Origin: Peribolospora baueri
Lineage: Eukaryota
Assembly: GCA_029717555.1 (NCBI GenBank)
Contig: JAMDHS010000040.1
Span: forward strand, 124,001-188,000
Direction of reading: 5' to 3'
DNA length: 64,000 bases
Made by a program: the position numbers and the translations under genes
The notes under the pieces: model-generated
What the model saw: only the letters and a program-made list of their open reading frames with translations
What the model was told of the DNA's origin: nothing
The model's database searches: none
Part shown: in pieces, positions 1 to 30,202 of the stretch
How positions within the stretch are numbered: the stretch's first letter is position 1
Layout: each line of letters begins with the position of its first letter

Positions 1-37
1 CCGTCTGTCTTCGGCTCCACAATGCGCCAATCCAAAG

Positions 38-2223
38 GCACGGCGTTCTCGACCTCGGTCGGCGCCCAAGCCGTCCATGACGCTAGCTTCCTGGCCCTGC
101 TGACAGAGTTCACGACGGCCATGGCTGTGGAGGCGCTCTGTGGTACAGATGGATCTTTCATCCCGTGAGCCGCCTTTGCGCTTTGATGACATTTTGCTCA
201 TTTGCCACAGGATCTGGGCCATGGTCTAGGGCGGTGCTGATGTGCATGCTCTCCTCAGCTTCATTCACGACGTCGCTCGGCCCCATCCTGGCCAAGTGGA
301 GAGCGCAGCGACTCTTATGAGCCTCCTGGACGGCTCATCGCTTGCAACGCATGTCGCCGACGAAAAGGCGACGCTACTCGGAGAGGACGATGGACACCTC
401 AGGCAGGACCGCTACTCTTTGCGTACGTTCTAGGCACGAGGTTGCCGAAGCCCGCTCATCGCTCATTGCAGGCATCTAAGCTGCTGTTGCCGCCACCGCT
501 CCCACCCCGTCTCTGCGACAAACTTGTAGGCACCGCTGCTCAGTGGATTGGCCCACAGATAGAGGACATCAGGGCGGCGCGTCGGGCCCTGGAGATTGAG
601 ATGAACAGCACGACGGACAATCCGCTCATTGATGCCGAGAGCAACCACTGCGCTCACGGCGGCAACTTTCAGGTAAGAGGAGCGAGGCCCCGGCGGAGGG
701 CGACCAAACTACGAAGTGGGATAGCGGAAGGATGTCAAAGAAAAGGAATCTGAAAATTCGGACGATCCGCTCGGCCGTGGTCCTACGCAGGCCATGTCCG
801 TGACCAACGCCATGGAAAAGGTCAGGTTGGCCCTAGTCCACCTAGGTAAGTCGCGACATAGAGGCGCTCCTTTCGATTCATCTAGCTAAGCCCCTCGCTC
901 CACCGCCGATGACTCGATAGGCAAGCTTACCTTTGCTCAGCTCACGGAACTGATCAATCCGAGCATGAATCGCGGGCTCGCCCCCAACGTGAGCACATGT
1001 CGAGTGGGGCTGACCACGGTTGTCCGGCTGACTCTGCGATGCTCCTGATCGACGGAAACCATCCCTCCTGCTATAGCTGGCTGCCACCGATCCGTCGCTC
1101 AACTATCATGGCAAGGGCGTGGACATTGCCATCGCCGCCGTGACTGCCGAGCGTGAGTGGACCAGTTGTCCGTCTTGGCTAGGAAGGGGGAGACCGCGGG
1201 CTGAACCGGCGGTCGTGTCACTTCGATGCTTTCAGTCGGCTTCCTCGGATCGCCTGTGTCCACTCACGTCCAGAGTGCCGAGATGCATAATCAGGCCGTC
1301 AACTCTCTGGCCCTTATCTCAGCCCGCAAGACAGTCGAAGCCGTCGAGGCGCTTTCAATGGTACGTTTCGCACTTTGAGGATGGCCTGGGTGCGTCTATG
1401 GTCCGCTGACTATCTGCCGACTTTCTCGCACCGTAGATGCTTTCCTGGGCGCTTTACCTGCTTTGCCAAGCCGTTGACCTGCGTGCGCTACAAAAAAGGG
1501 TCTCGACCCAGTTGGAGAGGTACGTGGTCGACTCGGTCAAAGCCCGCTTCGGCGACCTATGGGGCCCGGCCGAAGCCGCCATTGCGGCCGCGAAGGTTTA
1601 CCATCGCCTCGCGAAGCGTCTCGCGGAGACGACCACAATGGACCTCAAGGAGAGAATGGCAGACTCGTGCGCATTCGCGAGCTACGAGCTCTTGGAGAGG
1701 TGAGTTTGGAGCTCTGTCTAGCTGCATTTTCCCCATCGCGCAATGTCCGCTGAAGGTTTGGTCGTCGTGACAGGTGTGAGCAGGGTGCCAAGGCGGGCGC
1801 CAGCGACGCATGGGACGCTGTGACGGCCGCCTTTGCTTGCCGCGACGAGTGGGCCGCGTACGGGGAGCGACTCTTCCTGTCCGAGACAGAGGCTTTGCTC
1901 TCCTCCCCGTGCTCTTGTCACGCTGCGCCGCTGCTCGGCCGCACGCGCACAGTGTACGAGTACGTGCGCAAGGAGCTTGGCGTGCCCGTGCACGGCATGG
2001 AGAATTTCGTGCGCTTCGAGGGCGAGAAGGGGAAGATGCGCACGACGATCGGCGAGCACGTGTCCCGGATCTACGAGGCAAGTCTTTCCTCGACTATGGA
2101 GGGAGCCTTTGTTTTCAGATGTGGGTGACCCTCCACGAACTGATGCTCTGGTGCGTCTCCTTCCCGCAGGCCGTCCGCACAGGTGACCTCTACGGCGTTC
2201 TCGTGAACGTCCTCGCCGCGTAG
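38..2223 (+). CDS. PAL: Phenylalanine (aromatic amino acid) ammonia-lyase, C-terminal part; multi-exon, 5' end lies upstream of the window
   Basis: Spliced exons give [16 protein letters not shown]..., [56 protein letters not shown] and [17 protein letters not shown], all hallmark PAL/HAL-family motifs. GT-AG introns; stop TAG at 2221-2223. The MIO motif and specificity residues are outside the window, so TAL activity cannot be excluded. Confidence 0.95.
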
Positions 2224-3606
2224 ACCTCTCGCGATCCATCGAGGCGATCGAGCACTTCTATAGCGACCTGGTTCCCTCTTGCGACGATTTAAAGCCGTTG
2301 TTCGCCTACCTTCAGCCCGGACGTTTGCTATTGAGAGGCCTGGTCCGTTCCTCTTTTATTTATTTTACCGGATCCAGGCTCCCTGGTTTCCCGACTGTAC
2401 CGGGATGACCGATTCACTTTATTCGATAAGGCTTCCCTGAGAAGCAGGGTCGTGCTTGAGCTATGATGATAGGCGCTCTAGCAAGGGCACGTTCTCTCTT
2501 GTGTTTATTAGGATGATGGTTGTAATAGCGGATTTGTAAACTCGCCCAGAGGCCTCCTTCTGTCTTAGCGTCGCCGGCGCGCTTTTCAGCCGAGGGTGAC
2601 GCGATGCGCTCCGTCGAGCTCGTTCTCAACGGCGTCGGGGCGCCGAGCCATGAGTGAGAAAGCGAGCGCCATGCCCGTCCAATCAACGACGATTGGAGCA
2701 TGGACGAACTCGGCGTCGGTGCACGAATGCGCCACCACGCTGTCGCTAGCCACATTCCTGCGTGCGTCACTGTGCGCGAGAGCACGGGCGGGCGCGGACG
2801 GACGCGGGCGGGAAAATTCCGCGGAGGAACTGGTGGAACGGGACGGGGAATGCTGCCGTTTGGCGAGCAGGTTCACGGCTTGGCGGGAGCATGTAGCTTA
2901 AAGCGTACCGTAGCGCACGGAGGAGCCGGCGTCGTCTTCGTTCGGCTGGAGTGATGCACGGACGTGACTAACTTAGTCCCTCTTCACGAGAGAACGTGTG
3001 GGCCCATACATAGCCCCGTCCGCCCCCCGGGTTGTCCGATGCCGCGGACGACGCCTTCACGCCACAATCGGAAAATCCGTTCCAAGACGCAGGACAGGCC
3101 GGCGCGCTTCCCCGCTCGGTAAGAGCGGGGGCTCAATGACACCGTTCCGATCGAGCGGCTCTTAGCGGAAAGGACCGCCCTACCCGTCGCCGCGTTTGCC
3201 GACGGTTTCGGCCCCAACGCAGTACGAGCTAGTGAAGCTCAGACGTTCAGGCCGAGGTCACAACACAGGAGATGCTCCAGGGCGACGGCACTCCATGAAG
3301 ATTCTCGGTGACGCATCCGGGCAGGCATAGATTACTGAAAGGGAGATACACAACTGAAAAGGGAGATACACAACCGGAAGACAAGCCATTGGCCGCAGCT
3401 CTGGCCCTTACAGGACACGAACATTACAGATGGCGCGAGGTCACTCGGGGTCGCGAGGACAAAAAGAGGAAGGAAAGGACGAGACGGAGGACGGCGACGA
3501 GGAGGGGAATCGAGGCTTCGAAACGCGAACGCCTTGCAAGTGTTCGTCTGTCCGAGGCCGTCTGAGAAGAAAGCGCAGAGTGGACGTTGGTGGTATGTGC
3601 CCGCTC

Positions 3607-5077
3607 CTACTTTTTCCCATTGTCATAGTGGTACTCGACGCTTTGGAAGACGACGGGTGCCCGTGTCGATGGACCAACGCGACCGGCTCCAGCGGCGGGC
3701 ATGGAGTGAGAATTGGCGAAAGGCGTCGGATCCAGAGGGCCTCTCGTCCTGCCATCCTCCAGGTATTCGCGCTCTTCGAATTCCTTTTTGGTTGAGAGCT
3801 CGTCGGCGGGACTATACAACGACCCCGAGGTGCTGTAGTTGTCGGGCAAGGCGACTCGCGCCTTGAGCTCGAGCTCCTCGTCGGGAATCCGCGCGCCGCG
3901 GGTGCCGTTGCCCTTGATGATCGCGGGCCGGTTGCTGTCGATGGAGTTGTGGAAAGGGCCCAGCTTGGACATCTGAAGTATCCCAGGGCTTAACGGCTGA
4001 CGAGGGCTGGAGCAGGAGCCACGTGGATACCCAGCAAATCCCCCAGCGCTTGCCGTCGCATGAGGGCTGGAGCCGGAGCCCTGTAGATGCCCGCCCTTTT
4101 GCGTGGGCAGCTTTGGCTGGTCGGCCGACAGCTTCAAACCGCGAAAAACACGGCCAGCCATGGACGCGGTGAGCGCCAGGTTTGGAATGGTGAACATGCT
4201 TCGTATGACTGGATTCAGGGACGTGCTGGCGATGAGGCTAAAGGTAATGACGTTGGAGGCAATGGTGGCAAAGTAGTACGCCATGCCGCCCTCCATGATC
4301 TCCCTGGTCATCGCCGGCATGTCTCTGCGGGTGGTGAGCTGGCGGATCCACCGGAACGGGTTCCAGGAGCCCGTCACGTTGTGGAATAGCTTGGCGGAGA
4401 CGGCGAGCCAGACGAACGTGTCGTTCAGGGCGGTCAAGCCTGGGGCAGCGGAGGCGTACCCTTTGGCCACGACGTTGACGCAGTGCCCCGTGTTGGCTAC
4501 GCTGCCGCCCTGGACAGCGAAAACGACGAGGAGGCCGCCGGCGAGAGTGCCGAGCCATAGAAGCCCGAAGACGATGATCACCCATTTTCGATGGCCGTAC
4601 ACCGCCACTGTGCGCAGGTAGAAAATGGCGGACGTGGACGGGGAAGCGAAAGCGTAAGCAATGGTGATCGCCCGCGACGCCGCCAAGCAGGAGCTGACGG
4701 CCGTGGCTTGGAAGACGAAGGACGTGATGATGTAGGCGAAGACGGATATCCTGCACGGAGAATGGATAGGTTTCGGTGAGCCCGCGGCCGAGACTGCAGA
4801 AGCTACCGCCTCGCAGTCAGAAGGCTTTTCCCCGCCCGTGCGCGCGGTCGATTTCCCACCTGGAAATGAAATAGGCCACGGTGGGGAGGCCAATGCGATG
4901 CTTGAACAGCAGTCGATAGTCTTCGTTGAGCGTCAGCAGGACGTCCCACGCATAGGCGCCCATAGTAGCGGCATAGAGCAGCTGGGAGACGACAAAAGTC
5001 TGGCCGATCTCCGGCGGGAGCCAGACCAGCGGGTCATAGTCGGGAATGAAAGGATAAGAAGGAGGCTCTTGGGACAT
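3607..5077 (-). CDS. Multi-pass (about 7 TM) fungal membrane protein, GPCR-like/DUF6533-type; 2 exons
   Basis: ATG at 5077 (MSQEPPSYPF); intron 4859-4751 joins AYFISR|ISVFAY. Motifs WDVLLTLNEDYRLLF, AYFISR, FYLRTVAVY and EGGMAYYF, several hydrophobic helices and a long polar C-tail. Confidence 0.75.
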
Positions 5078-5760: not shown

Positions 5761-8445
5761 ATGAACACGAGCGCTCTGACCAAGTTGGAGCAGTACGATG
5801 TGATCGTAGTGGGGGGTGGGTGGACTCGGACGTCTCATGGCGAAGGGCCGCTCGACCGCGGCTCCCCCGATGCAGGCGTTGGTCCCTTTTCTGATCTCTT
5901 CTCTCGTTCTTCTCGGAATGCCCAGGCGGTTCCGCGGGCTCCGTCGTCGCCGGACGCGTGAGCGAAGATCCAAACGTGAAGGTCCTCCTCATAGAGGCCG
6001 GCAAGGAGTCAGTCCAAGCTGAAACGTTGGGCGGGGCGGGCGAGATAGAGAGAAGCGAGGAAGGCTCGGCTCGGACGGCCATGAATAGCCTCTTTCATGA
6101 CGCGCTGAACTTCTGCCTTTCTGGCGTTCTCTCCCTTCTAGCAACGCTGGAGACCCTGCGGTTCGACACCCCATTCAATACCTCTCACTGCTCACGTCTG
6201 AAAAGGTCAAGTTTTACTTGTCCGAGCCGGCGCATGGAGCGAAGGGGAGGACGATCGCCATTCCTCAGGCCAACGTGCTCGGGGGAGGGTCGAGCGTGAA
6301 TTTTCAAATGTGAGCCGCACTCTCGTCAGTGTGACCCACGTCGCCGCCGCAGCAGCCCCATGGATCGGTCGCCCATACCTAGACCCACTTCCATCCTCGT
6401 ACAGGTTCTCTCACGGTTCAGCTTCCGACTATGATGCATGGGGCGCGCTCGGCAACGAGGGATGGTCATTCAAAGACCTGCATAAGTACCTGCTCAAGGT
6501 GAGTTGTTTGAAAATGAGGATGTCCTGCTTTGGGCCTGCGAATAATCACGTTGTCCCCACCTGTCGATCAGTGCGAGAACTACCAAGAAGAGGACACCGT
6601 CCCTGGCGCGCACGGCAAAGGCGGCCCGATCAACGTCTCATTCGGACGCCATTTCCTTCCTAAGGCCCGTCTCCAACCAGATGCCTTCCTCGAAGCCGCC
6701 GAAAAGGTCGGCATCCCCAAAGTGGCCGACCTGCATGATTTTCACACCGGCCACGGCGCTTCCAACTGGCCCAAGAGCGTCGACGGCATCAAGGGCACTC
6801 GCTCGGATGCTGCATCGGCATATCTCGGCAAGCGCGACAATCTCGAGGTGGTCACCGGCGTCAAAGTGACCAAGGTGAACATCGACCCTGTCACCAAGAC
6901 GGCGACGGGTGTGAATATCGCTCTGTCTACGGACCTCTCCCAGTCTCGCTCCGTCTCTGCACGCCAGGTCGTCCTCTCCGCCGGTGCTTTCGGCTCCGCA
7001 CAGCTTCTTCAGGTATCCGGCGTGGGCGACAAGTCCGTCCTCTCCGCCGCCGGGGTTGAGACCCTCGTCGATCTGCCCGGCGTTGGCAAAAACTACCAAG
7101 ACCACACCCTCCTCTGTCTGGTTTTCCGCGTCGAGCCGAGCGTCTACTATTCGCATGACGGAGTGGCCTTTGGCTTTGACGCCGATGCCATCAAAGCCGC
7201 CCAGGAGGAGTTTGAGCTCAAGGCGAGCGGGCCCCTTGCGACCAACTCGATCGATGTCGGCATCAAGCTGCGCCCGACGGAGGAGGAGGCCAGACAAATC
7301 CCCAATTTCTACGAGAACTGGAAACGGGACTTTTCGGAGAAGAAGGATAAACCGCTCCTCTTCCTCGGACATATGGTGAGCCCAAGTGTGGGGGACGGGA
7401 GTGCGCGCCGGAGGACCTTTCGCTCAGCACATCCATGCTCGTTCTGGCTCTAGTCTGGCTTCCTGGGCGATCCATCCATCTTTGCTCCTGGGCACTACAT
7501 GACCTTCGGCCTGGGTATTCAGTATCCCTACTCGCGCGGAAGAGTCCTCATCAAGTCCGGCGACGTTTCGGAACCTCCCGTCCTAAAGGATGGCTACGCC
7601 ACGGACGATGCCGACATTCGTCCTTACATCTGGGGATACAAGAAGGCGCGTGAGCTGGCGCGCAGGATGAGAGGCTACAGGGGAGAGTATGAAAAGTCTC
7701 ACCCAGCGCTCAGCGAGAGATCAGCGGCAAGGTTGACGCACCTTGACCAGAACATCGAGGTCTCCGAGGATCTAAAATACAGCCAAGAGGACGACAAGAC
7801 GATCGAAGTGCGTGAACTTGCGTGTAATTGTGTCGAGAAGCGACGACGAGAATGCCTCGCTCACTGCTGCCGTCTTTCGGCATTTGGTTGGTCAACGACG
7901 CGGTCCCTTGCTCTTCTTCGGCAGGAGTGGACACGCGCCAGCATTGGAACAGCCTGGCACCCCATGGGCACTGCGTCCATGAAGCCTCGCGAAGACGGCG
8001 GCGTCGTGGACTCGTCGCTCAGTGTGTACGGAGTGAAGAATCTCAAGGTTGTCGGTAAGTGATTGGTGATCGGTGAAGCTCCCGTAGACGTGGCTGGACT
8101 CTCAACATTTCTGTCTTTCCCGTCGAGTAGATCTGTCAATCGCGCCTCTGGTGAGCTCAGCGGCGCGCGGTCGAGTTGCGAACGGATCGACGATGGCTCA
8201 TGTGCTTCCTTTCGCTCGCGCAGATGGTCGGCGCCAACACCAATTCGACGGCCTTGGCGATGTGAGCTGTTTTTCGTTCTCGTTCACACGGCCTTCCGGT
8301 CGGCAGGATCGTCCGTCATCTTCCGTTTGTTCTTATCGCTTTATCGCTGACGCTACTTCCTATGGCGGGCTCGCAATTGCCGTCGGTTCGCTTGTCCAGC
8401 GGCGAGAAGGGCGCAGACCTCGTTCGCGCGGCTTTGGCATCTTGA
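5761..8445 (+). CDS. GMC oxidoreductase, alcohol-oxidase-like clade; multi-exon
   Basis: YDVIVVGG|GSAGSVVAGR (GxGxxG FAD motif), LLIEAG, ANVLGGGSSVNF, SAGAFGSAQLLQVSGVG, PGVGKNYQDH, catalytic WHPMGTASM and GANTNSTA (His/Asn pair as in alcohol oxidases), GEKGADL; stop at 8443-8445. Confidence 0.92.
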
Positions 8446-9530: not shown

Positions 9531-11682
9531 ATGCGATGGTCGACGACCACCTCGACAGCGGTGGCTCTTGCCCTGGGCCTCCTTCAATCTACCCTGCCCT
9601 TCGTGGTCAGAGCGGCCGCACCGACCGTCTCGCTGAATTATACGACCGTCACTGGCGTCTACGGCGCCAGCTATGACCAGGATTGGTGTAAGCAATCGAG
9701 CGCACCGTCCCCAGCTCGCCCATGTACGTCGCGGGGTGCTCAACAACTGACTGATCGGATTTGCCTGTCGCCGAATACGCAGTCCTCGGCATTCCGTATG
9801 TCCATCCACCCGTCGGCCAACTTCGCTTCGCGGCGCCGTCGCCGATTGATGCCACCAGGGCGGGGCCGACCACAGCGACTGCCTATGGACCGGCTTGTCC
9901 TCAGAATTTCTTTCTGGGCGCGGAGCCCTCTCTGGTGCGGTGGCTTTTGCAGTCTCGCCCGCGTTATCCTGGCACGGCGGGCAGCAGGATGGACACATGG
10001 ATCGATGGGCTGACCTGTTGTTTCCTCTCGTTTCGTGTTTCCAGGACCTCAGCAACATGAGCGAGGACTGTCTCTACTTGAACATCCTCCGTCCGTCCAA
10101 CCTGAACAGCAGTAGCCTCCTCCCTGTCATGGTCTGGATTCACGGCGGATCGTTCCAAGAGGGCGGATCTCATGAGAGCAGTGCGTGTTCGCTCTCTAGA
10201 CTTGCGCTATTTCAAAGCACATCTGGCACCTGGCCTGACCGGTGACGCTTTCCATTCAGGGTTCAACGGCACTGACCTCGTCCATCGGTCCACGAGCTTT
10301 GGCACGCCCATGATCTTCGTCTCCTTCCAATACCGCCTTGGCGCGCTCGGGTTCGCCTCGTCGCCATTGTTCGCCCAGCAGGGCTTGCTCAACCTCGGCC
10401 TACGCGACCAGCGCGAGGCACTCTACTGGATCCAACGTCACATCAAGGCCTTTGGCGGGGACCCGAAGCGCATCACGCTCGCCGGCGAGAGCGCGGGTGC
10501 CATCTCCGTGCAGCACCATCAGGCGTGGTACGGGGGCAAGAACGAGAGCTTGTTCCAAGCGGCAATCCTCGAGAGCGGGACCGAGACGTTCTTCCAGGTC
10601 AAGCCTTACAACGACCAACAGGTCTACAACGCCACGCAGCAAATCGTCGATGACGTCGGCTGTGGGAACGCCAAGGACACGCTCTCCTGCCTACGCCAGG
10701 TGAACACGGCCACGCTGCAGAGTTACACGCTGCCTTACTCAGTGCCCAACCTGGACGCCGGCCTCAACAGTCAGTTTCCTTTCAAGCCCGTCATCGACGG
10801 AACTTTTCTGGTCAACTATCCTGTTGTGGCTGTCCTCGAGAACAAGCTCGTTGATGTTCCCACCATCGTAGGCCAAAACACTGACGAAGGCACCCTGTTC
10901 GTCAACCCCGCCGCGAACACTTCGGTCGAGTTTGTCAATTATGTCAAGTCCGTCGGCAACTTTACCGACCAAGAGATTTCGGACATTGAAAAATACTATC
11001 CAGATAACCCCGCTGATGGCTCTCCTTTTGGCACCGGCAACGACACATTTGGCCTCGGCTTTGAGTTTAAGCGGTGAGTGCTTATGATTGGCTTGAGCTT
11101 GCAAAGCAGTGCCGAGGTCGAGGGCGGCCCTGAAACGATACTGACGCACCGTCGCCTGTGCATTTCGACAAAACTCCTGGCGAGCCCAGTCTGGCCGCCT
11201 TTGCCACAGACATGTTCATCACGTCGCAGCGCCGGCTCCTACTCGAGTCCCAGTCGGCCGCGGGCAGGGCCAACATCTGGTCCTATCGCTTCGACCAACC
11301 CGAGCCCTGCGCCCCTCCTTACACCGGCGTCATGCACACGTACGAGCTTCCGTACGTCTTCGACCGTCCCTTCCAAGTCGACAGCCAGAGCGTCGCGATC
11401 CCGTGCACCGAGCCGGCGGCGCTGACACTGGCACAGCAGAACCTCTCCGACATTGCCAGCTTTTTCTGGGTTTCTTTCGTCGTGTCTCACAAGCCCCTGC
11501 CCTTCAACTGGACCTCAGGCGCCTGGCCCGCTTGGACGGCCAAGGCTCCGGTCAACTTTGTCTTCCAGGCGGTCAACGCGTCAGCCGGCCGGGGCCCCCA
11601 CGTCGAACAGGACAATTTCCGACAAGGACAGGTCAACTATTTGATGAACCTCACCGCGGTCGCAACCGGTGCTCCGAACTGA
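9531..11682 (+). CDS. Secreted type-B carboxylesterase/lipase; multi-exon
   Basis: Signal peptide [48 protein letters not shown] oxyanion hole, GESAG nucleophile, NTDEG (Glu) and GVMHTYE (His) complete the triad. Confidence 0.93.
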
Positions 11683-11982
11683 CAAAATAATGCTTCTTTG
11701 CCGTGTATATACTGGACTCCGACGGAGCCTGTTCATCCGTACCTCTGTCCCTATGAGGAAACGATGGGACGACCACGTTCGCTACCTTTTCAAAAGCCGC
11801 TGTTGTAGCCGTGACGATGACGTTGCGCTTGGAACGTTCGACGGCATTCCAGCCTAGGCAGTTGGCACAGGAGCGGAAACGACCTTGGAAATGCGGTCCA
11901 AAGTCGTCGCTGATTCAACGCTGCGCGAATGAGTGGAGGCCATTGGACGCTGAGCTACAGGGAGGGCGGGCGTACGACATAC

Positions 11983-12122
11983 GCCCGCCGGCAAGTGACG
12001 AAGGCGTTAAGTAAATCCTGAGAATGTAACTATGTTAGGGCGGATGGAAATGCCGCTATTGGCCAACGTGAGACGCTGATAAAAGGCGAGCTCGAGATTC
12101 CACAGAGCCGACAGGACGGTAT
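11983..12122. repeat. Copy B of the inverted repeat (partner 5363-5495)
   Basis: CTGAGAATGTAACTATGTTAGGGCGGATGGAAATGCCGCTATTGGCCAACGTGAGACGCT is the reverse complement of ~5410-5468 with a few changes. Confidence 0.9.
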
Positions 12123-12342
12123 TAACACGAGAAATGCGGCAGTGCGCCAGCGGCACTGAAGCTCCATGCTATGGGAACTGCATTGCTTCGACCTAGAGGC
12201 GACGAGCGCTCGGCCCGAGTTTCCACGATGCGCGTTTGGAAATGAAATGAAATAAAATAAAATAAAATAAAGTAAATAAAAAGCAAAAGAATCCAGGGGA
12301 ATGTACATAGTGCCAGGATCCGTTCAGGGAAAAGTCTCTTAG

Positions 12343-12577
12343 CCCGGGCTCCACATTTCATTTACATGCAACTGCTCAACGAGCCTCGCTACGAGGACTA
12401 TGACATCGCCTACCTCGATGTATGGCAATTTCGTCTCTTCCTGTCCGCTCCTGACCGGGCAAGTTCACTGAATTGCCCATGCTCTTCGCATATTTAGAGG
12501 AATCGCTTTGCCTTTCTCGGTGATGGTTCACCAGGGCGGAGGTCGAAGGCGGCGACCTGAGTTATTTCCTTACCTGA
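12343..12577 (+). pseudogene. 3'-terminal relic of a flavin-dependent (Baeyer-Villiger-type) monooxygenase gene
   Basis: Reads PGSTFH(Y)MQLLNEPRYEDYDIAYLD | intron 12420-12497 (GT..AG) | RNRFAFLGDG(F)TRAEVEGGDLSYFLT* after correcting two 1-nt frameshifts. It aligns with the C-terminus of the intact BVMO (WPGSCLHACKTLHHPRWEDYNY...NRLGWLGNGWTDAELNGGDRRWYL). Confidence 0.8.
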
Positions 12578-13577
12578 TGGTTCCATGCAGTGGGACGCTC
12601 GAGCAGCCTATTCGCTCTGCCATTGTATAGGAGATGACGCTCTCGAGGGGAACTACGGGGTTAAGATGTCAAAGCCAGCTTTTGCAATTCGAGAATTTAT
12701 GGGTCTCCCCGAATCCAGAGAGAAACAAGCTGAGCGCGCGGTTTCATATCTGCATCTGTGCGCCGTAGGGTCCCCCTTAACCGTGCGTGGACAGCCTCGC
12801 TTTTCGACAAAGCCGTGACGGGGCGAGTGTAGCCCTTATGTTCTTGATATCAACCTTACGCCGGGGCTTGACCTAAGACAAAACACTGATAGATGCATTT
12901 AAGGAAGACAAATGCGTCCCAGGAACGGGAGATGTGAACCGTCGCTTCAGGAACCTCGCCCTCTTTCTGTCCGCTTGTGTCTATGGTCTCTGCAGCCGTG
13001 ACATTTTCAGATTCGAACGCTCGCCCTCAGATGCCTTGCCCGCGTAGGGAGCGGGGACCAGGGGGAAGCTATTCCATCGTCGCTGTGCAATACTACGAGC
13101 CGTCGACTCTGCAGCCCTACTTGCGAAGTCTCGCCGCGTTAGGCGTATTCTCCGCATAGGACAAGGGCGATGGCAGCGTCAGATGGGAACCAGCTCGATC
13201 ATTTGTCCGGGCTCCGAGCAGTGGAACAGCTGGTCCCTGCCAGCTTCGTCTCTTGTTCCCCTTCTATGGTCACCAGGTAGTCAACAGCGAACGAGTCGTC
13301 CCGTCTCTTCAAGAGTCATGACCGCCCATCGGAGCCATGATGCAGAAAGCGTCTAATAGGCTTAAGCTTGTCTCATCAGGTCGGTCGGTCGGTCGGTCGG
13401 TCGTGCAATTCTCTGGCCCGGTGAGAGACGGCCGTGGAGGGCAATGCGAGGGACCGAGCGTGTAGGGAACTCCTCATCCGCGGTCGGTAGGCGCATCCTT
13501 CATAGGTGGGTTCGCCTGATTTGATGAATTGGTCAGACTAGGCAGGCCATGGAACGGTCGAAAGGTGCCGAGGGCGT

Positions 13578-13641
13578 TGGGCTCAATGCCGGAGCAAGAT
13601 TCACACGGTCATGTCAATGAGGAATGCCGAGACGGCAGGCA
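13578..13641 (+). repeat. Copy 1 of a ~62 bp direct repeat (copy 2 at 14771-14832)
   Basis: TGGGCTCAATGCCGGAGCAAGATTCACACGGTCATGTCAATGAGGAATGCCGAGACGGCAGGCA, near-identical to copy 2. Confidence 0.92.
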
Positions 13642-15036: not shown

Positions 15037-18000
15037 ATGCTGTTCCATAGCCTTTACCCGCCTGTGCCCTCCATCGTGGACTCGATCGACACGTACTCCT
15101 TTCTGTTCCACCACTTCCCACCTGACCGTCCCGACCCGCGCGGAACTGGCGTGCCTCTGGTCATCGACGATGAGACTGGCCAGAGATGGACCTTCGAGGA
15201 GTTTCGGGAAAGAGTTGACGCGCTGGCCGTCGGATTGAGGGACGAGATGGGAGTAGGTGAGTGTATAAAGCAGAAAGGAACGGCGGGGGGTGATGGACGA
15301 AAGTTCACGTCCTCCGGCTTGCATGGTCCGTCGGCGTGCGCTCCATTTCCGCGGCCGTCGTCCTATTGGCAAAGGTTGGGACACCACAGTGGCTCTGTGC
15401 TGCCCCAACGCCGTCGACTTCCTCACCGCAGTCTGGGCCGTCCATCGTTGCGGGGGCATCGTTTCCACTGCCAACCCTTCTTACTGCGCGAACGAGCTCG
15501 GTGAGGGCAGTGTTCTCTGGCTGCATAGCGAGAGAGTTAAAATACGCTCGCTGATACATTCTCGCGCGGACGGGCCATGCGTATGCGCATCCGTGAATCA
15601 TTGCCCTTCGTACGACGCGCGCCCAGCTTATCAGCTCAAGGAAGCGAAGGCCGAACTTCTCATCGTCGGCGACGGCGAAAATCAACGTCGGGTCGGCCTC
15701 GAGGCGGCAGCTAGCGTCTCGCTCCCGTCTCATCGTGTTCTCGTGCTTCAACAGCCGCGATCCTTCCAATCCGCGACGTCAGTGAACGGAGCTTCCTCTC
15801 TCCCTGCCAACGGCGCGACGAACGGAGTTGGCAATTCAAAAGCAATTGGCCCACCGTGCAGCCAAGGCGACCAGTTAAGGACTTTGACAAGTCTGATCGA
15901 AGCTGGTCGCGCGAGTTTGGCGGAGGCTCAGACGAAGGGAGGTGACAAGGCTCGCACCCAGCTACTCGAGAAAGGGCGGGCCGAGTTGACATCGGGCCAA
16001 GCGAGGACCAAGCTAGCTTTCCTCAGCTTCAGCTCCGGCACCACCGGTCTTTCAAAGGCAAGTATGCAGTGGACGGCCTAATGCGCTCGGCGAAGTCTCT
16101 GAGACAGAATAAGACTGACCCTCTCCTTACTTGCGCGGCATACCTTTGGATCCTCTCGGCTGGGCGTGTGCCTGCACTAGGCTGTTGCAATCCCGCACTT
16201 TTCCCTGGTTGCCAACACGCTCCAGATGATGGTCTTTAACGGCGTCCGTAATACCACGAATCACTGCGACGCTCCAAAGGACAGCCGATTCTTGCCTGGA
16301 CAAGACGGTGAGTGCTCTGCAACTGTCCCGTCTGTGTGCGGGAGAGCGTGCGTCCCGACCAGAGCGCCACGAGCTGGCATATTGACGATGTGGGTCAAAC
16401 ATCCTCGGTCCTGGATATCATATGCAAAGTGTCTCTGGGAGCTCTGCCCTTCTACCGTGAGTCCATGGCCCAGTCTTCAAGGTCGCCGGCGCTGCGGTGG
16501 AGAAAGTGTCGGCAGTACCACAGATCACTCAGCACTTCTGACCGCCGTGTCCTCCGTTCCTCGCGCGACGTTTACAGATATCTACGGTCTCATTGTCGGC
16601 TGCCACTTTACCTTTTATGCTGCCGTCGCCAACGCCGTCATCCCACGCTACGCCTTCGAGCCAATGCTGGAAAGCATCATCCGCCATCGCATTTCGGTCC
16701 TGTGGCTTGTCCCCCCGCAGATCATCCATTTCTGTAAGAACCCGGCAACGGAACGTCTCCGCGACGAGCTCCGGCAAGTTATCCGCATTGTCACCGTTGG
16801 CGCAGCGCCTCTTACAGACGACCAAGCCAAGACGTTTGCAAATATCTTCCCAGAGGCGGAATTTGGCCAGGCGTACGGTGAGGTCGCAAAATAATTGATC
16901 CCTCGGTCAAGTACTCACAGCCACCCTTGCCTTCGTCTTTTGGGTCCGTGGCTCCCCACAGGCTTGACCGAAACTGCGACGTGTGCGCTCATGTTTCCGC
17001 ACGAAGTCCGTCCCTCGATCGCGGGCTCGGCTGGTCGCCTTATTTCGAGCTGTGTCGCTAAAGTGGTGCGCCGGGACGGCTCTCTCTGTGGCTTCGACGA
17101 GCCAGGAGAGCTCTGCGTGCGTAGCCCGAGCAACTCGCTCGGTTATCCATATAACGATCAGGCGTGAGTGCCTTCGCAATCCTTTCCTTTGCGCGTCCCG
17201 TTTTCCGCTTGTTCGACGGTATAGGCGAGCTCGGCGCTTAGCCGCGATGTCGTCCTGCGTTGATTGACTATGCCGGTATGCCCCGTGCCGTTGCGATTGC
17301 AGTACCAAAGACGCCTTTGACGAGGATGGCTTTGTTCATACCGGTGACGAGGTCGTCATCAACAAGGCCGGCGATGTCTTTGTCATCGTAAGATGCCAAT
17401 TTTATGAACCCGACGCTGGGGAAGCCTCGTGTAAGCCCGCTGGACAACGAGACTGCTTGTTCCTGACTCTGTCTCGCATATCTCCAGGACCGGCTCAAGG
17501 AGCTGATCAAAGTCAAAGGGTTCTCGGTCGCACCTGCTGAGCTCGAGGGCTTCCTGCTTGAGCACCCCGCCGTCGCCGATTCCGGCGTCGTCCCCGTCAA
17601 GGACGAGGCCAGAGGTGAGGCGCCCTTAGCTTTTGTCAAGCTCACGCCAGAATATGAAAAGCGGGTGCGGGAGGCCGGGCCTCAAGAGGCACAGTGTCTA
17701 GCGGACGACATCGTGGACTTCGTCGCTCAGAACAAGGTGAGCTTCTGGTGGATTGCGGGGGGAGGCCAACACCAAGGCGAGCGCCGAAGCATTCGACTTC
17801 GGTACAATCCTCCTTTCCTTCTCCCGCGGGACAATCCATTCTGGGCTCACGACCCTCCTTTGACTCCCCGCCTCCATTGCTTCCATCTCTCCTAGGTTCG
17901 CTACAAGCACCTCACGGGCGGCGTCGAGTTTGTTCAAGCGATTCCCAAGACGCCATCCGGGAAGATGTACGTATCTTCCAGCACAGTGACGTGGTTCACA

Positions 18001-18159
18001 GGCCTGCATGTCAATCGGTCCAATGGCGATGGTGCCCACGCTGACGCGTACAGACTTTCGTCTCGTGCTACGTTGTCTCGTCATTCATCGCATGGCAGTC
18101 TCCGAAGGTTGCTACGCGAAGAAGCGAAGCGAGTCGTGCAGAACCGGACCAAAGTTTAA
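15037..18159 (+). CDS. 4-coumarate:CoA ligase-like / aryl-acid CoA ligase (ANL adenylate-forming family); multi-exon
   Basis: SFSSGTTGLSKAV (AMP-binding box I), GQAYGLTETA, GELCVRSP (similar to 4CL box II GEICIRG), FVHTGD, DRLKELIKVKGFSVAPAELE, IPKTPSGK; ends RTKV*. Confidence 0.9.
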
Positions 18160-20445: not shown

Positions 20446-21120
20446 GATCGGATTTTGGAGCCCGGATCGAGGTAGCGACGGCAGATGTAACGAGGCGGAG
20501 AAGCGAAAGCTCGACGAGTACGTCTCTCCGGAGTATACCCTCGAAGACGCTGGATATCTGTCTCTCTTTTGGCTGGCCCGGGCGTGTCAGAGCTCGGGGG
20601 GCTTTGCGCATGCTCCGTTTCCCTTCGTAGGCAGCCTTGCTCAGTCGGTCCTCGCGATCCGAGAGACACACGGCTCCACATTTGCGCGAACGAACACCCA
20701 GTTCGGCTCAGGTGCTGCCGAGGGACGCCGCCCGAGGCGCGATGCTGTTGCCTGTTGCCGATGTCCGGCGGCCCGCGGATGAATGCGGATCGACACGACG
20801 TTCCGCTGAAGCTTGACGTCTCCAGCGTGGGAGCAAACCAGGGGGAGCGGGGAAGGCTACTTTAGCGCGCGAGCGGTTAGCGTTAGCGTCAGCGTTCGAA
20901 CCAGCAGAGCAATTTAGACCCGCCAGTTCACTAGTTCGGTTCGACTGATCACGAAAGCGACTACGCAAGTCCACCTAGCGACGCCCCATGGGATCGCCAT
21001 GCGGTGCGACGGAATTAAGTTGCGTCGGTAGTGGAGCCTGAGCGCCAACGGTGGTACAAACTAGATATCGGGAGCCACGTGCACGTGCCTGGTCACGTTC
21101 CAGTTACGTTGCACGTGTCA

Positions 21121-21206
21121 TCCTTTCCGAGACGGAGGCTTTGCTCTCCACCGTGCCCTTGTCACGCTGCCCCGCTGCTCGGCCACACGCGCACAGTGTA
21201 GGAGTA
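21121..21206 (+). pseudogene. Duplicated fragment of a PAL coding exon (source ~1875-1963)
   Basis: TCCTTTCCGAGACGGAGGCTTTGCTCTCCA--CCGTGCCCTTGTCACGCTGCCCCGCTGCTCGGCCACACGCGCACAGTGTA versus PAL TCCTGTCCGAGACAGAGGCTTTGCTCTCCTCCCCGTGCTCTTGTCACGCTGCGCCGCTGCTCGGCCGCACGCGCACAGTGTA; about 90% identical by eye. Confidence 0.93.
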
Positions 21207-22039
21207 ACGTCGAGCCCGATCACTTCTGTCCGTCACATGTATGTTATGTCACCTAGAGAATGCAATTCTGTGCAACATCAAAATTTTTTCTCGCATCAAG
21301 CAAAGTCGTAGAGAATGCAGAAGTGCGCGACCTGTCAAAAAATGAGAGAAATCCAATCTGTGAGTGCTGAGATATGATGAAGGAAGTGTGGCGAACGGCG
21401 GCCAAGAAGCATTTCACACGTCACTGCCAAACCGCCGTTAAGCATTGTCCTTAAGTGAAGTCACTCAAATCTCAAGTGATTCTTGCAGTTTTTTATGTGA
21501 GCATATTCACCAAAGAGCGAGCTCTCTATTCATATAGAAATGGAGGCATGAATTGATCATAATTGAGGAAATATGGGAGGGGGTTCGAGGCAGGGTCCGA
21601 CGCATGGATGTTGGTCGCTGTCGCGCACCGGTACTTGGTAACGACGAGATCGCCGGCCTCACAGCATTTACACTGATATCTACGAGGCCGTTGACCTGGG
21701 GTTGGGATGGACGTGGTACGCCATACTCGAGAGAACTCCGTTCGGATCAAGGTGTTCCAGTTACAACTATGAGACCAGCTGAGAGGAGATCCGCTCCTGT
21801 AAGTGGGCACGCCTCTAGGCGTGCATCCGGTATCGGCTCGCCCGGCCGCCGTCTACCCGGATACCAGTCACGTGCGGACCTGCGCGTGACCAGGCACGTG
21901 CGACTATCCCGCCAGGTGGGAATCCGCCACTGCGCCCACGCCGCCGCCGCCGGCCCCTCGTATGAGGCGCCGTCGCTGTGCCCCTATGTAGTTATACTCG
22001 ATCCATCACATATGTACCTGGTCGCACAAGTGTCTTAAA

Positions 22040-25000
22040 GTGCATGAAGCACGACATGGCTGAGATGATCATGAAGCTCGGTGCCCACCCTGACAAGACC
22101 TCATGGCAGGGCATCCTTGTCAAGGCCAAGGATTACGAGGAATCGATGCGGTTCACTCGTGCCTTTCTGCGTGACAGGAAGGCAGAGAAGACCCCCCTTG
22201 GCAGTTCGCCAGGAGGGGGCAACCCCTCTAGCTGCCCAGCTCAAGGCGCTGGATGACATAAAGGGTCAAGCCTTGGCACACCGGTCAAGGCTTCGAGCAT
22301 GCCACTGCGCGCTCTCGCTTGCAATACGAGCAGCGGGCCACCGCCGCTCGAGCTGCTGGTCGAGCAGCTCCTAAGTCAACCGACTTGAGTCGAGACCAAT
22401 GTGCTCGATGCAAGAAGGTCGGCCATTGGGCAAGCGAGTGCCCATTACGCCTGCGAGTCAACAAGGTGTATTGGGACACCAGTGACGAGCATGGCAGCCA
22501 TGGGGGAGATGACCCGCATGAGGACTCGGTACCCAGTCAGGGTGACGAGGAGACTGATGTCATGTTGCACGACATCGACGACCGCCTTGCCGAAGTGTTT
22601 GAGATGGCGGCGGCGGTCGATGAGGACCACCTCGATGATGAGTACGTTGTCGACGTGGACCCTCCTGACCTAGCGGCCAGCTAGGTCCATCGAGCCGGCT
22701 CTGCAGCAAAGCCCAGTTCGCTGGAGCCGGATCCCGTGCTTAGCAACGCTAAGCACAAGATGCCATTGGGGCAAGCGTCGCCAATGGCAGCGAAACGACT
22801 CCCCGGCGTTCCGCCCCTACTTGCCCCGGTGCAAGTAGATGGTCAAACAGCACTCGTGCTGTTTGACACGGGGTCAACTATCGACCTCATATCGTCTTCA
22901 TGGCTTGACGTACACCAGAAGAAGACATATGCCCTCCGCGAACAGGAGGTCATTCAGCAGGCCATGACTGGGTCTAAGGCCAAGCTGACTCGTGCGTACG
23001 AGGCGCACGTCACTTGCGGACCCATCGTCCGTGAGAAGACATACTTTGATATCGGTCCTCTTGACCGGCAGGAGGTCATCTTCGGCACTGCCTGGATGAA
23101 GAAGAACGATGTTCTTCCGGATCTTGTTAATAACAAGATCTTGTTCCGACATCACGGCGTCAAAATCCGCGGTTGGACACAAGCCCAAGCGCGACAGGGA
23201 GCACTGGCTTCCCTGACACGTAACGGTGAACTGTTACATACGGAGTCCGGACCTCAACCTGGAGATCCGGAATGCCCGGCGGAAGTCGTTCGACGCCGTG
23301 AGTGGTGGATCAAGCGCACCACCGATATCTGGGGTGAGATCCCTCTCATCCTGCTGCCCTGGTGAACGATCAATCATCGCTTAAAGCTGATTGACCCATC
23401 CTTTCGCTATGTGAAGAGATATCCGAAATGCCCAGAGGCATTCTGGCAGCAGCTCAGTGATAAAATTGAGCGCTATACCAAGGCGGGTTGGTGGGAAGAG
23501 GTCCACACTGACAACGCTGTACTGCTCTTGTGCATCCCAAAGAAGACCGGGAAGCTCCGTACTGTGGTAGACGCTCGTCAGCGCAATGACAATACAGTTA
23601 AGGACATGACGCTTTTTCCGGATCAGGATGTGATCCGGATGGCCGTGGCTCGTGCACGAGTGCGCGCGAAGCTCAACATGTTCGACGCGTACGAACAGAT
23701 CCGTGTCGTACGCGAGGATGTAGCGAACACAGTGTTCGTTATGATATATGGGACGTACGCTTCCCATGTGATACAGCAAGATGATTGCAACGCCGTTGTT
23801 ACATTTCAGCGTCTTATGACACATCTCTTCGCCGTACATCGGCAAGTTCGTCCATGTTTACCTAGACGATATCTTCGTGTTCTCTGACATACCCGAAGAG
23901 CATGAAGAGCACCTTCATATCGTCTTCGACGTTCTCCGGAACGCGAAGATGTACTTAGCCAAGGCTAAGGTGGACTTGTACTCCGAGTCCATGGATTGCC
24001 TAGGCTTCCACGTGGATGACAAAGGTCTCCACGCTGGCGACGATAAGCTCAGTGCGCTATCATCATGGCCACAGCCGAAGAAAGTGCATGAGATGCAGCG
24101 GTTCTTGGGTATGGTACAGTACCTCGTCCAGTTCCTTCTGGAACTGAGCCGGTATGCCGGCCCGCTCTCTATGCTCACACATAAAGGCTGGAAATATGAA
24201 TGGCAGCCCATTCATGCAGACGCCTTCCAGGCGATCAAGCGCCTGGTTGCCCATGCGCCTGTCTTGCGACCCATTGACCCGGGTCGCCGTGAACGGATAT
24301 TCGTTCACTGGGACGTAAATATCGCTGGCATCGTGGCAATGTATGGCCAAGGGCCTTCGTGGAAGCGAGTCCGCCCCGCCGGCTTCCATAGCCATACGTT
24401 CATGCCTGCGCAAGTGAACTATAGGACTCACGAGCAGGAACTGCTCGCGATCCTTGAAGCCCTAATGAAGTGGGTAGACCAGCTCCTTGGCCGCCACTTC
24501 ACGGTCATCGCCGACCATGATAGCCTCGAGGTGCTCAAGCAACAGAGCACGCTCTCGAGGCAACACGCGCGATGGCTTGAATACCTATCACGCTTCGATT
24601 TTAACATACAATATGTTGAAGGTGTAATGCACGTCGTCGCCGACGCGCTATCTCGCCTTCATGAGGCGAGCGAACCGTCCGCCGAGCTCCCAGCGTACGC
24701 CTGCATCGATGCAGATCGACGTTTAGACCTGGAGGCCGAGGATCTCCCACCTCCGGTTACGCCGCCGTCCACGTTGCTGAGCCCACTGCTCCTCAATGCC
24801 GTGCAGCGTGCCTTGCCCCCATCCGTGGGCGACGTTCCCCTTCCAGATGCCCCCGCGACCACGTTGTTCGACCTCAACGACATTAGCCCTCAGTTTCCTG
24901 AGGCGTACAAGACTCACCCAGTCTTGTCTAAAGCCATCGCGCGCCCGGATGACTTCATGACCTCACAGTCGGTGATGGTTTCCTATATACGAATAACCGT

Positions 25001-26320
25001 TGCGGCGACCGCTATCTTGTCGGGCCACCTCTTATTTTGAAGGGGCGGCGGGTGGCGGAATGCCTGATGGAACAGGCCCATGACAACATTGGGCACCTCG
25101 GTCGAGAGAAGACGCACAATCTTCTCCGCCACCAGAAATGGCTAAGGACGTAGAGTCCTACTGTCGCTTGTGCGCGGTCTGCGCAGCGATTGTCACGAAC
25201 CGGTGAACTGGCGGTACGAGGTAGCTAACCTCGGCCGGGGATTCCCAACGATCGGTCACTAGACAAGACTAAGAAGGCTATACGATGCACACTCTGATCA
25301 CGAAGACAGGGTTGGACTCTGATCCAAGCTGTGGTTTCCCTCATGATGCGACATAGATGGTCCTTATGTACACAGTGGTCTATAGTACGAAGTGCCCTCT
25401 TCGGTCGGGGGACTTCGGGCCGTGTCTGCACGTCCGCTGAAGCGTGCAGGAGGCCAGACTTGCCATCGGGTGCTGCCAGGAGGGGCGCTCCGGTCGCTCC
25501 CGTCATGCCTACGCCTTCGCCCATGGCTCACTCATGGCTTACCTGCAGGGGAGGGCTAGACGGCCATGTACTTCTGGCATGAATCAGGTGGTCGGGTATT
25601 AGGAGAAGAGCGAGCTTAAGCGGCTCGTGGGCACGTGACCGAAGTGCCTTCAGAGCTTCGGTCGGGGCATTGAAGCGACGAAGATGACCAACTGGTATCG
25701 GCCGGGGAAGCTATGCCCCTTGCCCATCCCGGCACGGCAGTGGTCATCGATCGCAATGGACTTTGTTGGTCCATTACCCCTCTCCGAGGGTTACGACATG
25801 GTCCTTGTCGTGATCGATCGACTGACGTCGATGGTCCACCTTCTCCAGACGACGGCGAAGGTCACAGTGGCCCAGGTGGCTTCGCTGTACTATGACCAAG
25901 TCTGCAGGCTCCACGGCCTACCAGAGACGATCGTATCCGATCGTGACGTGAGGTTCTTCCAAGTTCTGGCAAGAGCTCTACCTCCTTGTAGGCGTTTAAC
26001 TGTTGATGTCAACTGCCCACCATCCACAGATGGATGGTGTGACCGAGCGGGCCGACCGCACGGTCGTGCAGATCCTTAGGGCAATGATGTCGCCGGATCA
26101 ATCCGACTGGGCTCAGTTCATTCCAGCCGTCGAGTTCGCTATGGACTCGTGTGTAAGCTCGTCGACAGGGTGCACGCCCTTCGAGCTTAACTTTGGGTAT
26201 AACCCATCCTTATTCAAGACGATCTCGTACTTATCCGAGTACAAGAGCATCAAGGACTGGGCCGAAGCGGCTCGCTAACCTCCAGCGAGCTCATGATGCG
26301 ATCGTTGCATCTAGAGTGTT
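22040..26320 (+). mobile_element. Degenerate Ty3/gypsy LTR retrotransposon (gag-PR-RT-RNaseH-IN), truncated, with stops and frameshifts
   Basis: Gag zinc knuckle CARCKKVGHWASEC; protease LFDTGST; RT VYLDDIFVFS (~23855-23885); RNase H EQELLAI and DHDSL; integrase HHCC (HDNIGHLG...CRLCAVC), IAMDFVGPLP, IVSDRD and HHPQMDGVTER. Domain order is gypsy-type. No 3' LTR seen. Confidence 0.95.
25191..25674. mobile_element. ~480 bp insertion (probable solo LTR) splitting the gypsy integrase
   Basis: Begins TGTCAC right after the integrase CAVCAA codons; the integrase resumes ...TKMTNWYRPGKLCPLP after it. Flanked by GCGAT/GCGAC, a putative 5-bp TSD with one change; the 3' end TTGAA is an imperfect TG..CA terminus. 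Confidence 0.65.
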
Positions 26321-29700: not shown

Positions 29701-30202
29701 CCACGCTCTTCGTCCTGCGTTTTCGAAGTTGCCAAGCTAAGGACCTTCCCCTGCCGTGCGCCACTTCCGTCTTTTTTCTTCATTTTTTGCATCATGGCGG
29801 ATAGTGCCGGACGTGGTACAAGGGCGGCAAGACGGAAGGTCCCATCACTGCCCTCTGGCCCGGCTCTTGTCTGCACGCTTGCAAGACGCTCCATCACCCG
29901 CGGTGGGAAGGTGAGCGATGACGAACGATACTGCATCATGTCGCCGTCGTGTGTCAAACGATATACAAAATGACCCATTTTCTGCCTCCCTTCAACGACT
30001 CCCCCCAATCATCCTCGACCGCGTTCCCTGTGCAGATTACAACTATGAGCGCCTGCCCAGCGCTGGACCCAACCGGCTCGGCTGGCTCGGTAACGGCTGG
30101 ACCGACGCGGAGCTCAACGGAGGAGACCGGCGTTGGTACCTCAAGCCGAACGAGGAGGCTCAGAAATCGCTTAACAGCGGCGCCATGCGCTTCTCGATGT
30201 GA
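26743..30202 (+). CDS. FAD/NADPH-dependent Baeyer-Villiger monooxygenase (type I); many small exons
   Basis: [36 protein letters not shown], BVMO fingerprint FQGHKVHSAIWD (FxGxxxHxxxWD), VIGSGSTSIQ, CRRLTPGPGFLEAL, ATGFD, WPGS...PRWED. Confidence 0.93.

Follow-up and report, generated by a model that had tools for sequence, protein, structure and literature searches.

The left-hand 31 kb of a 64,000-nucleotide window from the Peribolospora baueri genome (GenBank assembly GCA_029717555.1, contig JAMDHS010000040.1, positions 124,001 to 188,000 of the forward strand; positions below are counted from the first letter of the window) carry a gene for a phenylalanine/tyrosine ammonia-lyase (PAL) and, further in, adjacent genes for an acyl-coenzyme A (CoA) ligase resembling 4-coumarate:CoA ligase (4CL) and for an acyl-CoA-dependent HxxxD acyltransferase, followed by one for a type I Baeyer-Villiger monooxygenase (BVMO). 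We favour, tentatively and with less than even confidence, the reading that this is a lineage-specific, transposon-scarred accessory neighbourhood that holds a small aryl-acyl module composed of PAL, ligase, acyltransferase and possibly the BVMO, no backbone synthase being in view.

In the proposed route PAL would deaminate phenylalanine (or tyrosine) to a cinnamate-type acid, the activity expected of the family to which its exons belong. The ligase would then turn this acid, or a chain-shortened benzoate, into a CoA thioester; here the subfamily is given by the comparisons below and the substrate is a presumed one. Finally, the acyltransferase, recognized by its motif, would move the acyl group from this putative donor onto a hydroxyl or an amine of a putative acceptor. 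The BVMO would once have been the head-to-head neighbour of the acyltransferase, before a retroelement landed between the two genes, and may belong to the module.

The argument starts from gene position: an acyl-CoA-forming ligase lies directly beside an acyltransferase of the kind that consumes acyl-CoA. By rough estimate, using assumed copy numbers, a 4CL-type ligase would fall within seven genes of a PAL by chance in ~1% of cases or less, and a ligase would fall directly next to an acyltransferase in well under 1%; because very many windows were scanned, these estimates are suggestive only. The case rests on the co-location of common enzyme families and is a lead, not a discovery. All of the enzyme families are ordinary, and what is unusual is an orphan acyltransferase together with the lack of a backbone gene in view. 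No described fungal cluster that joins PAL with a ligase and an acyltransferase, or PAL with a BVMO, without a polyketide synthase (PKS) was found in the open-access literature, where only the strobilurin paper proved relevant. A first-pass annotation of this DNA had proposed that six enzymes lead from phenylalanine to an aryl ester or amide. The families of PAL, the 4CL-like ligase and the HxxxD enzyme fit that logic; the clade of the GMC oxidase, the secreted type of the esterase, the Tri3/Mac type of the transferase and the peroxisomal family of the ligase do not.

PAL, CoA ligase, acyltransferase and BVMO

Gene content was established by Pfam profile searches of 101 stop-to-stop open reading frame (ORF) pieces of at least 100 aa from 1-32 kb and of single exons; 138 extra pieces of at least 50 aa covered the apparent gaps, and 140 ORF pieces represented the right half (32-64 kb). 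Gene models were produced ab initio by a dynamic programme based on codon usage and splice sites, and were corrected by hand where conserved motifs were missing. All database comparisons were made with single exons or full-length relatives, not with joined spliced proteins. The genes are intron-rich, and G+C across the window ranges from 0.53 to 0.66. Several introns in the left-hand genes measure 120-160 nt, which is probably long for a basidiomycete. The named protein relatives of the window genes are all fungal, and the host is a poorly sampled basidiomycete fungus.

The PAL exons cover positions 187-227, 231-273, 275-323 and 392-430 of the 466 in the Lyase_aromatic profile, in that order. 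Because coverage starts at 187, the window opens ~40% into the gene, and the N-terminal third of the protein, with the Ala-Ser-Gly triad that forms the 4-methylidene-imidazol-5-one (MIO) group and the Phe/His selectivity switch, lies beyond the window start. The exon at 1437-1697 has a single match in PDB, the PAL of Rhodosporidium toruloides (1t6j/1y2m, residues 522-605), which identifies it as the predicted eukaryotic PAL-specific C-terminal extension. The ab initio model keeps an open frame to the stop at 2223 and ends without a tripeptide resembling a type 1 peroxisomal targeting signal (PTS1).

The ligase exons together cover AMP-binding 13-383 and AMP-binding_C. The spliced model contains SSGTTGLSK and GELCVRS, variants of 4CL Box I (SSGTTGxPKG) and Box II (GEICIRG), along with YGLTE and PKTPSGKILRR. 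For two separate exons the best solved relatives are plant 4CLs (Nt4CL2, 5bsm; Populus 4CL, 3a9u), with which the window ligase shares the Box I-like motif, the Tyr of the HIY motif and the A8/A10 motifs; the plant enzymes differ in that the fungal ligase's family carries PTS1 tails and its pocket exon matches them weakly. A full-length relative, P0051, matches 4CL at 1.4e-64, luciferase at 1e-55 and a fatty acyl-CoA synthetase at 3.4e-52, and by this measure the ligase appears nearer to 4CL than to other ANL enzymes, by a modest margin. A word-index search returned 53 basidiomycete relatives with 35-52% identity over the exon; every named one is basidiomycete, and the automatic names among them include 'phenylacetyl-CoA ligase', '4-coumarate-CoA ligase' and 'acetyl-CoA synthetase-like'. 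By tblastn, five full-length relatives align colinearly with the gene.

The exon that contributes the substrate pocket scores only ~25-30 bits against 4CL. Here, the window ligase has Thr-Val just before the conserved S-G-A-A-P-L, at a point where the At4CL1 fusion entry (3tsy) has Lys and Nt4CL2 has Met. It has kept the HIY Tyr, which in plant 4CLs stacks on the aromatic ring, as described in PMC12917453; the same study, of 2026, shows that 4CL specificity is not determined by a few pocket residues and cautions against prediction from sequence. An attempt to read the specificity of the window ligase from 4CL pocket residues was abandoned, given a pocket exon at ~25 bits and that study's result.

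The acyltransferase was detected by two profiles, each narrowly above its cut-off: Tri3 (1e-5; 24.8 bits, cut-off 23.5) and PapA_C (1e-7; 32.1 bits, cut-off 30). Its only PDB matches are PtMAC2p (8jor, 3.2e-6) and Tri3 (3fot, 1.1e-4). HTMLD occupies the HxxxD column, and the protein aligns end to end, colinearly, with nine relatives. The model does not end in a PTS1-like signal. A BAHD identity (PF02458) was considered and dropped, as neither large exon matched that profile and only Tri3 and PapA_C were found; on its sequence the enzyme is classed as Tri3/Mac-type, not BAHD. The proteins with which it shares a fold family, the HxxxD motif, a length of ~500 aa and the general kind of reaction, acyl-CoA-dependent O-acylation, are PtMAC2p of Pseudozyma tsukubaensis (8JOR) and the Fusarium Tri3 15-O-acetyltransferase (3FOT). 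The likeness is distant, with E-values of only 3e-6 and 1e-4, and their donors are fatty acyl-CoA or acetyl-CoA, not aryl-CoA.

Relatives of this protein are few. Among 1.84 billion representative sequences HMMER returned 41 at E<=1e-3, two at <=1e-10 and none at 1e-30; the best is 33% identical, and the protein itself was absent from the matches. Aligned globally, the protein is 18-24% identical to its closest database relatives. Those that bear an organism name comprise hypothetical proteins of Tulasnella, Pleurotus, Obba and Roridomyces and a trichothecene 15-O-acetyltransferase of Cirrosporium, an ascomycete and the sole non-basidiomycete among them. Most relatives carry a Tri3 domain, and in the atlas the protein neighbours Tri3, condensation and AATase clusters. 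A word-index search with the acyltransferase exon found no longer proteins, and in metagenomes the exon met a single sediment contig of 3.3 kb, matching at 34% over 72 residues and of no help for synteny.

The BVMO model displays the exact type I fingerprint (FQGHKVHSAIW, for FxGxxxHxxxW), two GxGxxG folds (GAGLSG and GSGSTS) and ATGFD. In PDB its exon at 28139-28369 (77 aa) matches cyclohexanone monooxygenases best (6era, 6.1e-12), followed by other type I BVMOs; the fingerprint and the two Rossmann motifs are common to cyclohexanone, phenylacetone and steroid monooxygenases. The model lacks a PTS1-like end. It requires a 12-nt micro-exon at 27286-27297 (ACDI), followed by a 261-nt intron at 27298-27558, the longest of the region. 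In the ketone catabolism of bacteria, type I BVMOs frequently come with a partner esterase; unlike in such pairs, the only esterase near the window BVMO is 15 kb off, past a transposon remnant and two genes, and has the look of a secreted protein.

Gene order, transposon scars and a sister isolate

Profile matches on ORF pieces and exons confirmed that all seven genes of the first-pass annotation are real and close to where it had placed them, and Pfam families at 31 kb and downstream bear out its statement that housekeeping genes resume at ~31 kb (Table 1). It had missed the retroelement, the 3.3-kb gene-less stretch, the truncation of PAL by the window start and a PAL pseudo-fragment.

Table 1. 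Features of the left-hand region and its right-hand boundary, in window coordinates
Feature	Position	Strand	Evidence and remarks
PAL, 3' two thirds, ~10 exons	1..2223	+	Pfam Lyase_aromatic; 5' end beyond the window
Multi-pass membrane protein with DUF6533 motif, ~433 aa, 3 exons	3607..5077	-	DUF6533 on exon 4844-5077
GMC flavoprotein oxidase, alcohol (methanol) oxidase clade	5761..8300	+	GMC_oxred_N/C; 3' end uncertain past ~8261
Type-B carboxylesterase/lipase, GESAG nucleophile elbow	9531..11682	+	COesterase 1.7e-47
Gene-less stretch, lower G+C, short repeats	11683..15036	.	No Pfam match, no positive gene-finder model
4CL/phenylacetyl-CoA-ligase-like acyl-CoA ligase, 12 exons, ~593 aa, C-terminus TKV	15037..18159	+	AMP-binding and AMP-binding_C
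Orphan HxxxD acyl-CoA-dependent acyltransferase, Tri3/Mac/PapA5 (condensation-like), 5 exons, 495 aa	18593..20445	-	Pfam Tri3, PapA_C
PAL pseudo-fragment, 95 nt	21118..21210	+	blastn and tblastx self-comparison; found in both isolates
Decayed Ty3/gypsy remnant (pieces of gag zinc knuckle, protease, reverse transcriptase, RNase H, integrase)	21538..26278	+	Pfam
Type I BVMO, 16 exons, 593 aa	26743..30202	+	Manual splice model, open frame; weak FMO-like Pfam match at 28.0-28.4 kb
Mitochondrial carrier gene	31132..31944	-	Mito_carr 6.6e-8; first housekeeping-type gene, right-hand boundary

Ligase and acyltransferase are convergent, lying tail to tail with 433 bp between them. Acyltransferase and BVMO are divergent, and the DNA between them consists of ~1 kb of unique sequence, the 95-nt PAL fragment and the Ty3/gypsy remnant; without the retroelement the two genes would have one divergent promoter of ~1.5 kb.

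The remnant is ~4.8 kb long, and in-frame stops part its successive ORFs. Pfam matches to a gag zinc knuckle (zf-CCHC), an aspartyl protease, a reverse transcriptase and RNase H lie at 22.3-25.0 kb, and two integrase fragments were the only matches among the 138 gap pieces. No direct repeats resembling long terminal repeats were found around it. Over 300 nt of it (23165-23464) the contig depth is double that of the neighbouring sequence, and a stretch of 54 nt (25210-25263) is met again ~11.2 kb upstream of the window, at the very end of an assembly contig from one isolate that runs ~11.3 kb beyond the window's upstream end. Depth and recurrence together imply at least one more partial copy of the element family flanking the region.

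The PAL pseudo-fragment is 88% identical to PAL 1872-1965, in the penultimate exon of the gene, and carries a frameshift and a TAG stop. It sits 670 bp upstream of the acyltransferase start, so the PAL and acyltransferase loci have some sequence history in common. The fragment could be filler DNA from break repair, or it could be the relic of a rearrangement that joined both loci.

The gene-less stretch lies on the PAL side of the ligase. Among 48 ORF pieces of at least 50 aa from 11.7-15.0 kb none matched a Pfam family, and the gene finder gave no positive model there either. G+C falls to 0.534 at 12-14 kb. Within the stretch, 12018-12122 is an inverted 105-nt copy of 5363-5468, between the DUF6533 and GMC genes, and 64-nt direct repeats at 13578-13641 and 14771-14832 bracket 1.2 kb. 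This DNA could derive from a decayed gene or represent a small non-autonomous element.

Assembled contigs of two DNA runs were aligned to 11000-30999 (20 kb). The sister isolate is colinear with the window over this stretch, retroelement remnant included, at ~0.2% divergence. Exons of the ligase, acyltransferase and BVMO make up 25% of the stretch and hold two of the 31 single-nucleotide polymorphisms (SNPs) listed (binomial P 0.008), namely H152D in the acyltransferase and a synonymous change in the BVMO. They hold none of the 12 indels (P 0.03), three of which fall in predicted introns; the retroelement takes 12 of the SNPs and five of the indels. The scarcity of exonic SNPs and the lack of exonic indels indicate that the three genes have been kept intact and are under constraint, at a divergence of ~0.2% that has no bearing on deep conservation. 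The indels in predicted introns back the splice models at those places.

Weighing the aryl-acyl module against its alternatives

Several observations weigh against a functional link among these genes. Between PAL and the ligase lie 13 kb with three functionally unconnected genes and a 3.3-kb empty stretch, and acyltransferase and BVMO are parted by the retroelement. No PKS, non-ribosomal peptide synthetase (NRPS), transcription factor, transporter, P450 or methyltransferase was detected by Pfam in 1-31 kb, among ORF and gap pieces. A search of five upstream regions for a common promoter word, a weak test, gave nothing beyond 200 shuffles overall; its best cases were a 7-mer present in all five regions (shuffle maximum 3) and a 9-mer present in three of the five. 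In both Pleurotus ostreatus PC15 (1.57 and 3.27 Mb) and P. cornucopiae (1.86 and 2.65 Mb), the ligase and the acyltransferase have their closest relatives on separate scaffolds; at 23-26% identity these relatives are hardly orthologues.

The enzymes themselves add to this side of the balance. The lead of 4CL over the fatty acyl-CoA synthetase in the comparison with P0051 is narrow. Characterised Tri3 uses acetyl-CoA, not aryl-CoA. PtMAC2p is a mannosylerythritol-lipid acyltransferase with a fatty acyl-CoA donor (PMC10619693). An aryl pathway would imply a GMC oxidase closest to the secreted aryl-alcohol oxidases; in PDB the GMC exon at 6572-7375 (268 aa) matches AOX1 (5hsa) at 5.4e-46 and the AOX of P. 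chrysosporium (6h3g) at 3.7e-40, ahead of aryl-alcohol oxidase (3fim) at 2.4e-16, and the model opens with GxGxxG without a signal-like N-terminus. The esterase resembles secreted lipases and sterol esterases and its model has a signal-peptide-like start. Moreover, 49 of the 53 ligase relatives (P0049-P0101) end in a PTS1-like x-[KR]-[LM] tripeptide (such as AKL, TKL, GKL, SKL, ARL or AKM) and the remaining four look truncated, which points to a peroxisomal ligase family. In terms of predicted compartment the set is mixed: the esterase would be secreted, the ligase comes from a peroxisomal family, and PAL, acyltransferase and BVMO would be cytosolic.

Much of this evidence also fits a neighbourhood that arose by chance, in which a gene-poor, repeat-bearing accessory region gathers large, fast-turning enzyme families with unrelated jobs (GMC, carboxylesterase, AMP-ligase, flavin monooxygenase, DUF6533 and Tri3-like proteins) and PAL merely borders it. 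The mixed compartments, the lack of a common promoter word, the separate scaffolds in Pleurotus, and the retroelement remnant, pseudo-fragment and short dispersed repeats are all as such an origin would have them. Gene density is lower on the left (~1 per 4.3 kb) than on the right (~1 per 2.6 kb). Some basidiomycetes carry several members of the ligase family, seven of the 53 entries coming from one Ceratobasidium. Set against a chance origin are the two adjacency estimates given above and the proven pairing of PAL with a ligase in strobilurin producers (PMC6158276). Taken alone a chance neighbourhood is somewhat unlikely, and we rate it nearly as likely as the aryl-acyl module.

The window ligase itself ends in TKV, which is not a canonical PTS1 and could be a weakened or lost peroxisomal signal. 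A sharper form of the favoured reading builds on this: a backbone-free phenylpropanoid cluster in which PAL, a ligase gone from the peroxisome (x-K-L to T-K-V) and the acyltransferase would make a cinnamoyl or benzoyl ester or amide, which the BVMO would tailor. We regard this specific version as unlikely.

A quite unlikely alternative is that the region is the right-hand flank of a backbone cluster. Its backbone gene, for either a PKS (highly reducing, non-reducing or type III) or an NRPS-like enzyme, would lie just upstream of the window, and PAL and ligase would provide that enzyme with a cinnamoyl or benzoyl starter, in the manner of the strobilurin and squalestatin pathways. Tailoring would then fall to the acyltransferase, the BVMO and the GMC enzyme, a proposal that we hold in equally low regard. 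Both documented fungal sets of PAL and CoA ligase do feed a PKS. In addition, the window opens inside PAL, and the ~11.3 kb of contig upstream leave room for a backbone gene; ~1-1.5 kb of those 11 kb are PAL, so that space would be tight for a highly reducing PKS of 9-10 kb.

The closest described counterpart is the strobilurin cluster of Strobilurus tenacellus and S. lutea, where Str11 (PAL), Str8 (an oxygenase of the non-haem iron type) and Str10 (a CoA ligase) supply the benzoyl-CoA starter (PMC6158276). Like the window, that cluster comes from a basidiomycete and co-locates PAL with a CoA ligase, Str4 (a GMC oxidase) and Str9 (a flavin-dependent oxygenase); PAL marks one of its edges. Unlike 1-31 kb of the window, it has a highly reducing PKS, two methyltransferases and a non-haem iron oxygenase. 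No non-haem iron oxygenase was detected among the ORF and gap pieces of 1-31 kb, and the other strobilurin-type marks, a highly reducing PKS and O-methyltransferases, were likewise without a Pfam match there; the DNA upstream of PAL lies beyond the window. PAL is outermost in the strobilurin cluster, whereas here the candidate partners are on the far side of PAL. The window further differs in pairing its ligase with a Tri3/Mac-type acyltransferase; the comparison with Str10 and Str11 is one of gene content. A PKS-feeding ascomycete pathway also combines PAL with CoA activation of cinnamate, the step proposed for the 4CL-like ligase; its beta-oxidative helper enzymes were not seen in 1-31 kb.

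The least probable of the explanations considered is that the genes serve to harvest and break down aromatic acids. Here, the secreted esterase would free cinnamate-type acids from plant esters and PAL would make cinnamate from phenylalanine. In the later steps, which we judge just as improbable, the peroxisomal-type ligase would lead into beta-oxidative shortening, and the BVMO would oxidise aryl ketones such as acetophenone to aryl esters, to be hydrolysed in turn. The PTS1-like ends of the ligase relatives agree with this route, as does a BVMO of cyclohexanone/phenylacetone monooxygenase type. A beta-oxidative path from phenylalanine through cinnamate to acetophenone has been proposed for Bjerkandera adusta, its enzymes being described as unidentified (PMC9823374). 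A relationship to lipases and choline esterases, enzymes of the window esterase's kind, has been described for basidiomycete feruloyl/chlorogenic-acid esterases of SF12/13 (PMC5084320), and by analogy a hydroxycinnamoyl-esterase role is possible for the window enzyme. Catabolism gives an acyltransferase no role, however, and Pfam found no hydratase/dehydrogenase, thiolase, thioesterase, ring hydroxylase or dioxygenase in 1-31 kb. A predicted extracellular esterase could not hydrolyse the product of an intracellular BVMO, and the ligase ends in TKV instead of a canonical PTS1.

Flanking genes and significance

In the favoured reading of an aryl-acyl module, a bystander role is more likely for the GMC enzyme, the predicted-secreted esterase and the DUF6533 membrane protein. 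The DUF6533 match (24.4 bits, cut-off 24.1) just clears its threshold; the model has hydrophobic segments, and no second Pfam family was matched by this gene. The label 'receptor-like', given to it by the first-pass annotation, found no backing beyond a multi-pass membrane protein. A ligase relative from Tetrapyrgos nigripes (P0063, 787 aa) is fused to a PF20152 domain, which we take to be DUF6534, the usual companion of DUF6533. This fusion suggests either that a DUF6533-like membrane protein adjoins such a ligase in T. nigripes or that two gene models were merged.

AOX1 and the P. chrysosporium AOX are the best relatives of the GMC enzyme and stand 25 orders of magnitude ahead of aryl-alcohol oxidase. 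At ~0.6 bit per residue the window protein would be a diverged paralogue of canonical methanol oxidase. The last exons of this gene are ab initio only, as are the N-terminal exons of the esterase. In PDB the esterase exon at 10262-11071 (270 aa) matches Aspergillus niger EstA (1ukc) at 2.1e-44, the sterol esterase of O. piceae at 6e-42 and lipases of C. rugosa.

To the right of 31 kb, Pfam identified, beside the mitochondrial carrier, an AMPK beta carbohydrate-binding module (CBM), an RNA recognition motif (RRM) protein, a pentatricopeptide repeat (PPR) protein, Sec66, a desaturase-cytochrome b5 and DBR1. An aldo-keto reductase at 43222-44079, amid these housekeeping genes and 13 kb to the right of the BVMO, is the only other small-molecule enzyme of the right half and shows no link to the left-hand group.

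If the catabolic reading were right, the region would be a pointer to enzymes of the beta-oxidative route from phenylalanine to aryl ketones proposed for white-rot fungi. If PAL, ligase and acyltransferase work as a unit, they would represent a way for fungi to form aryl esters or amides with neither a PKS nor an NRPS, and genome-mining programs keyed on backbone enzymes would skip such clusters. The trio would then also provide a first function for a branch of Tri3/Mac-like acyltransferases of which hardly any relatives have been sequenced.

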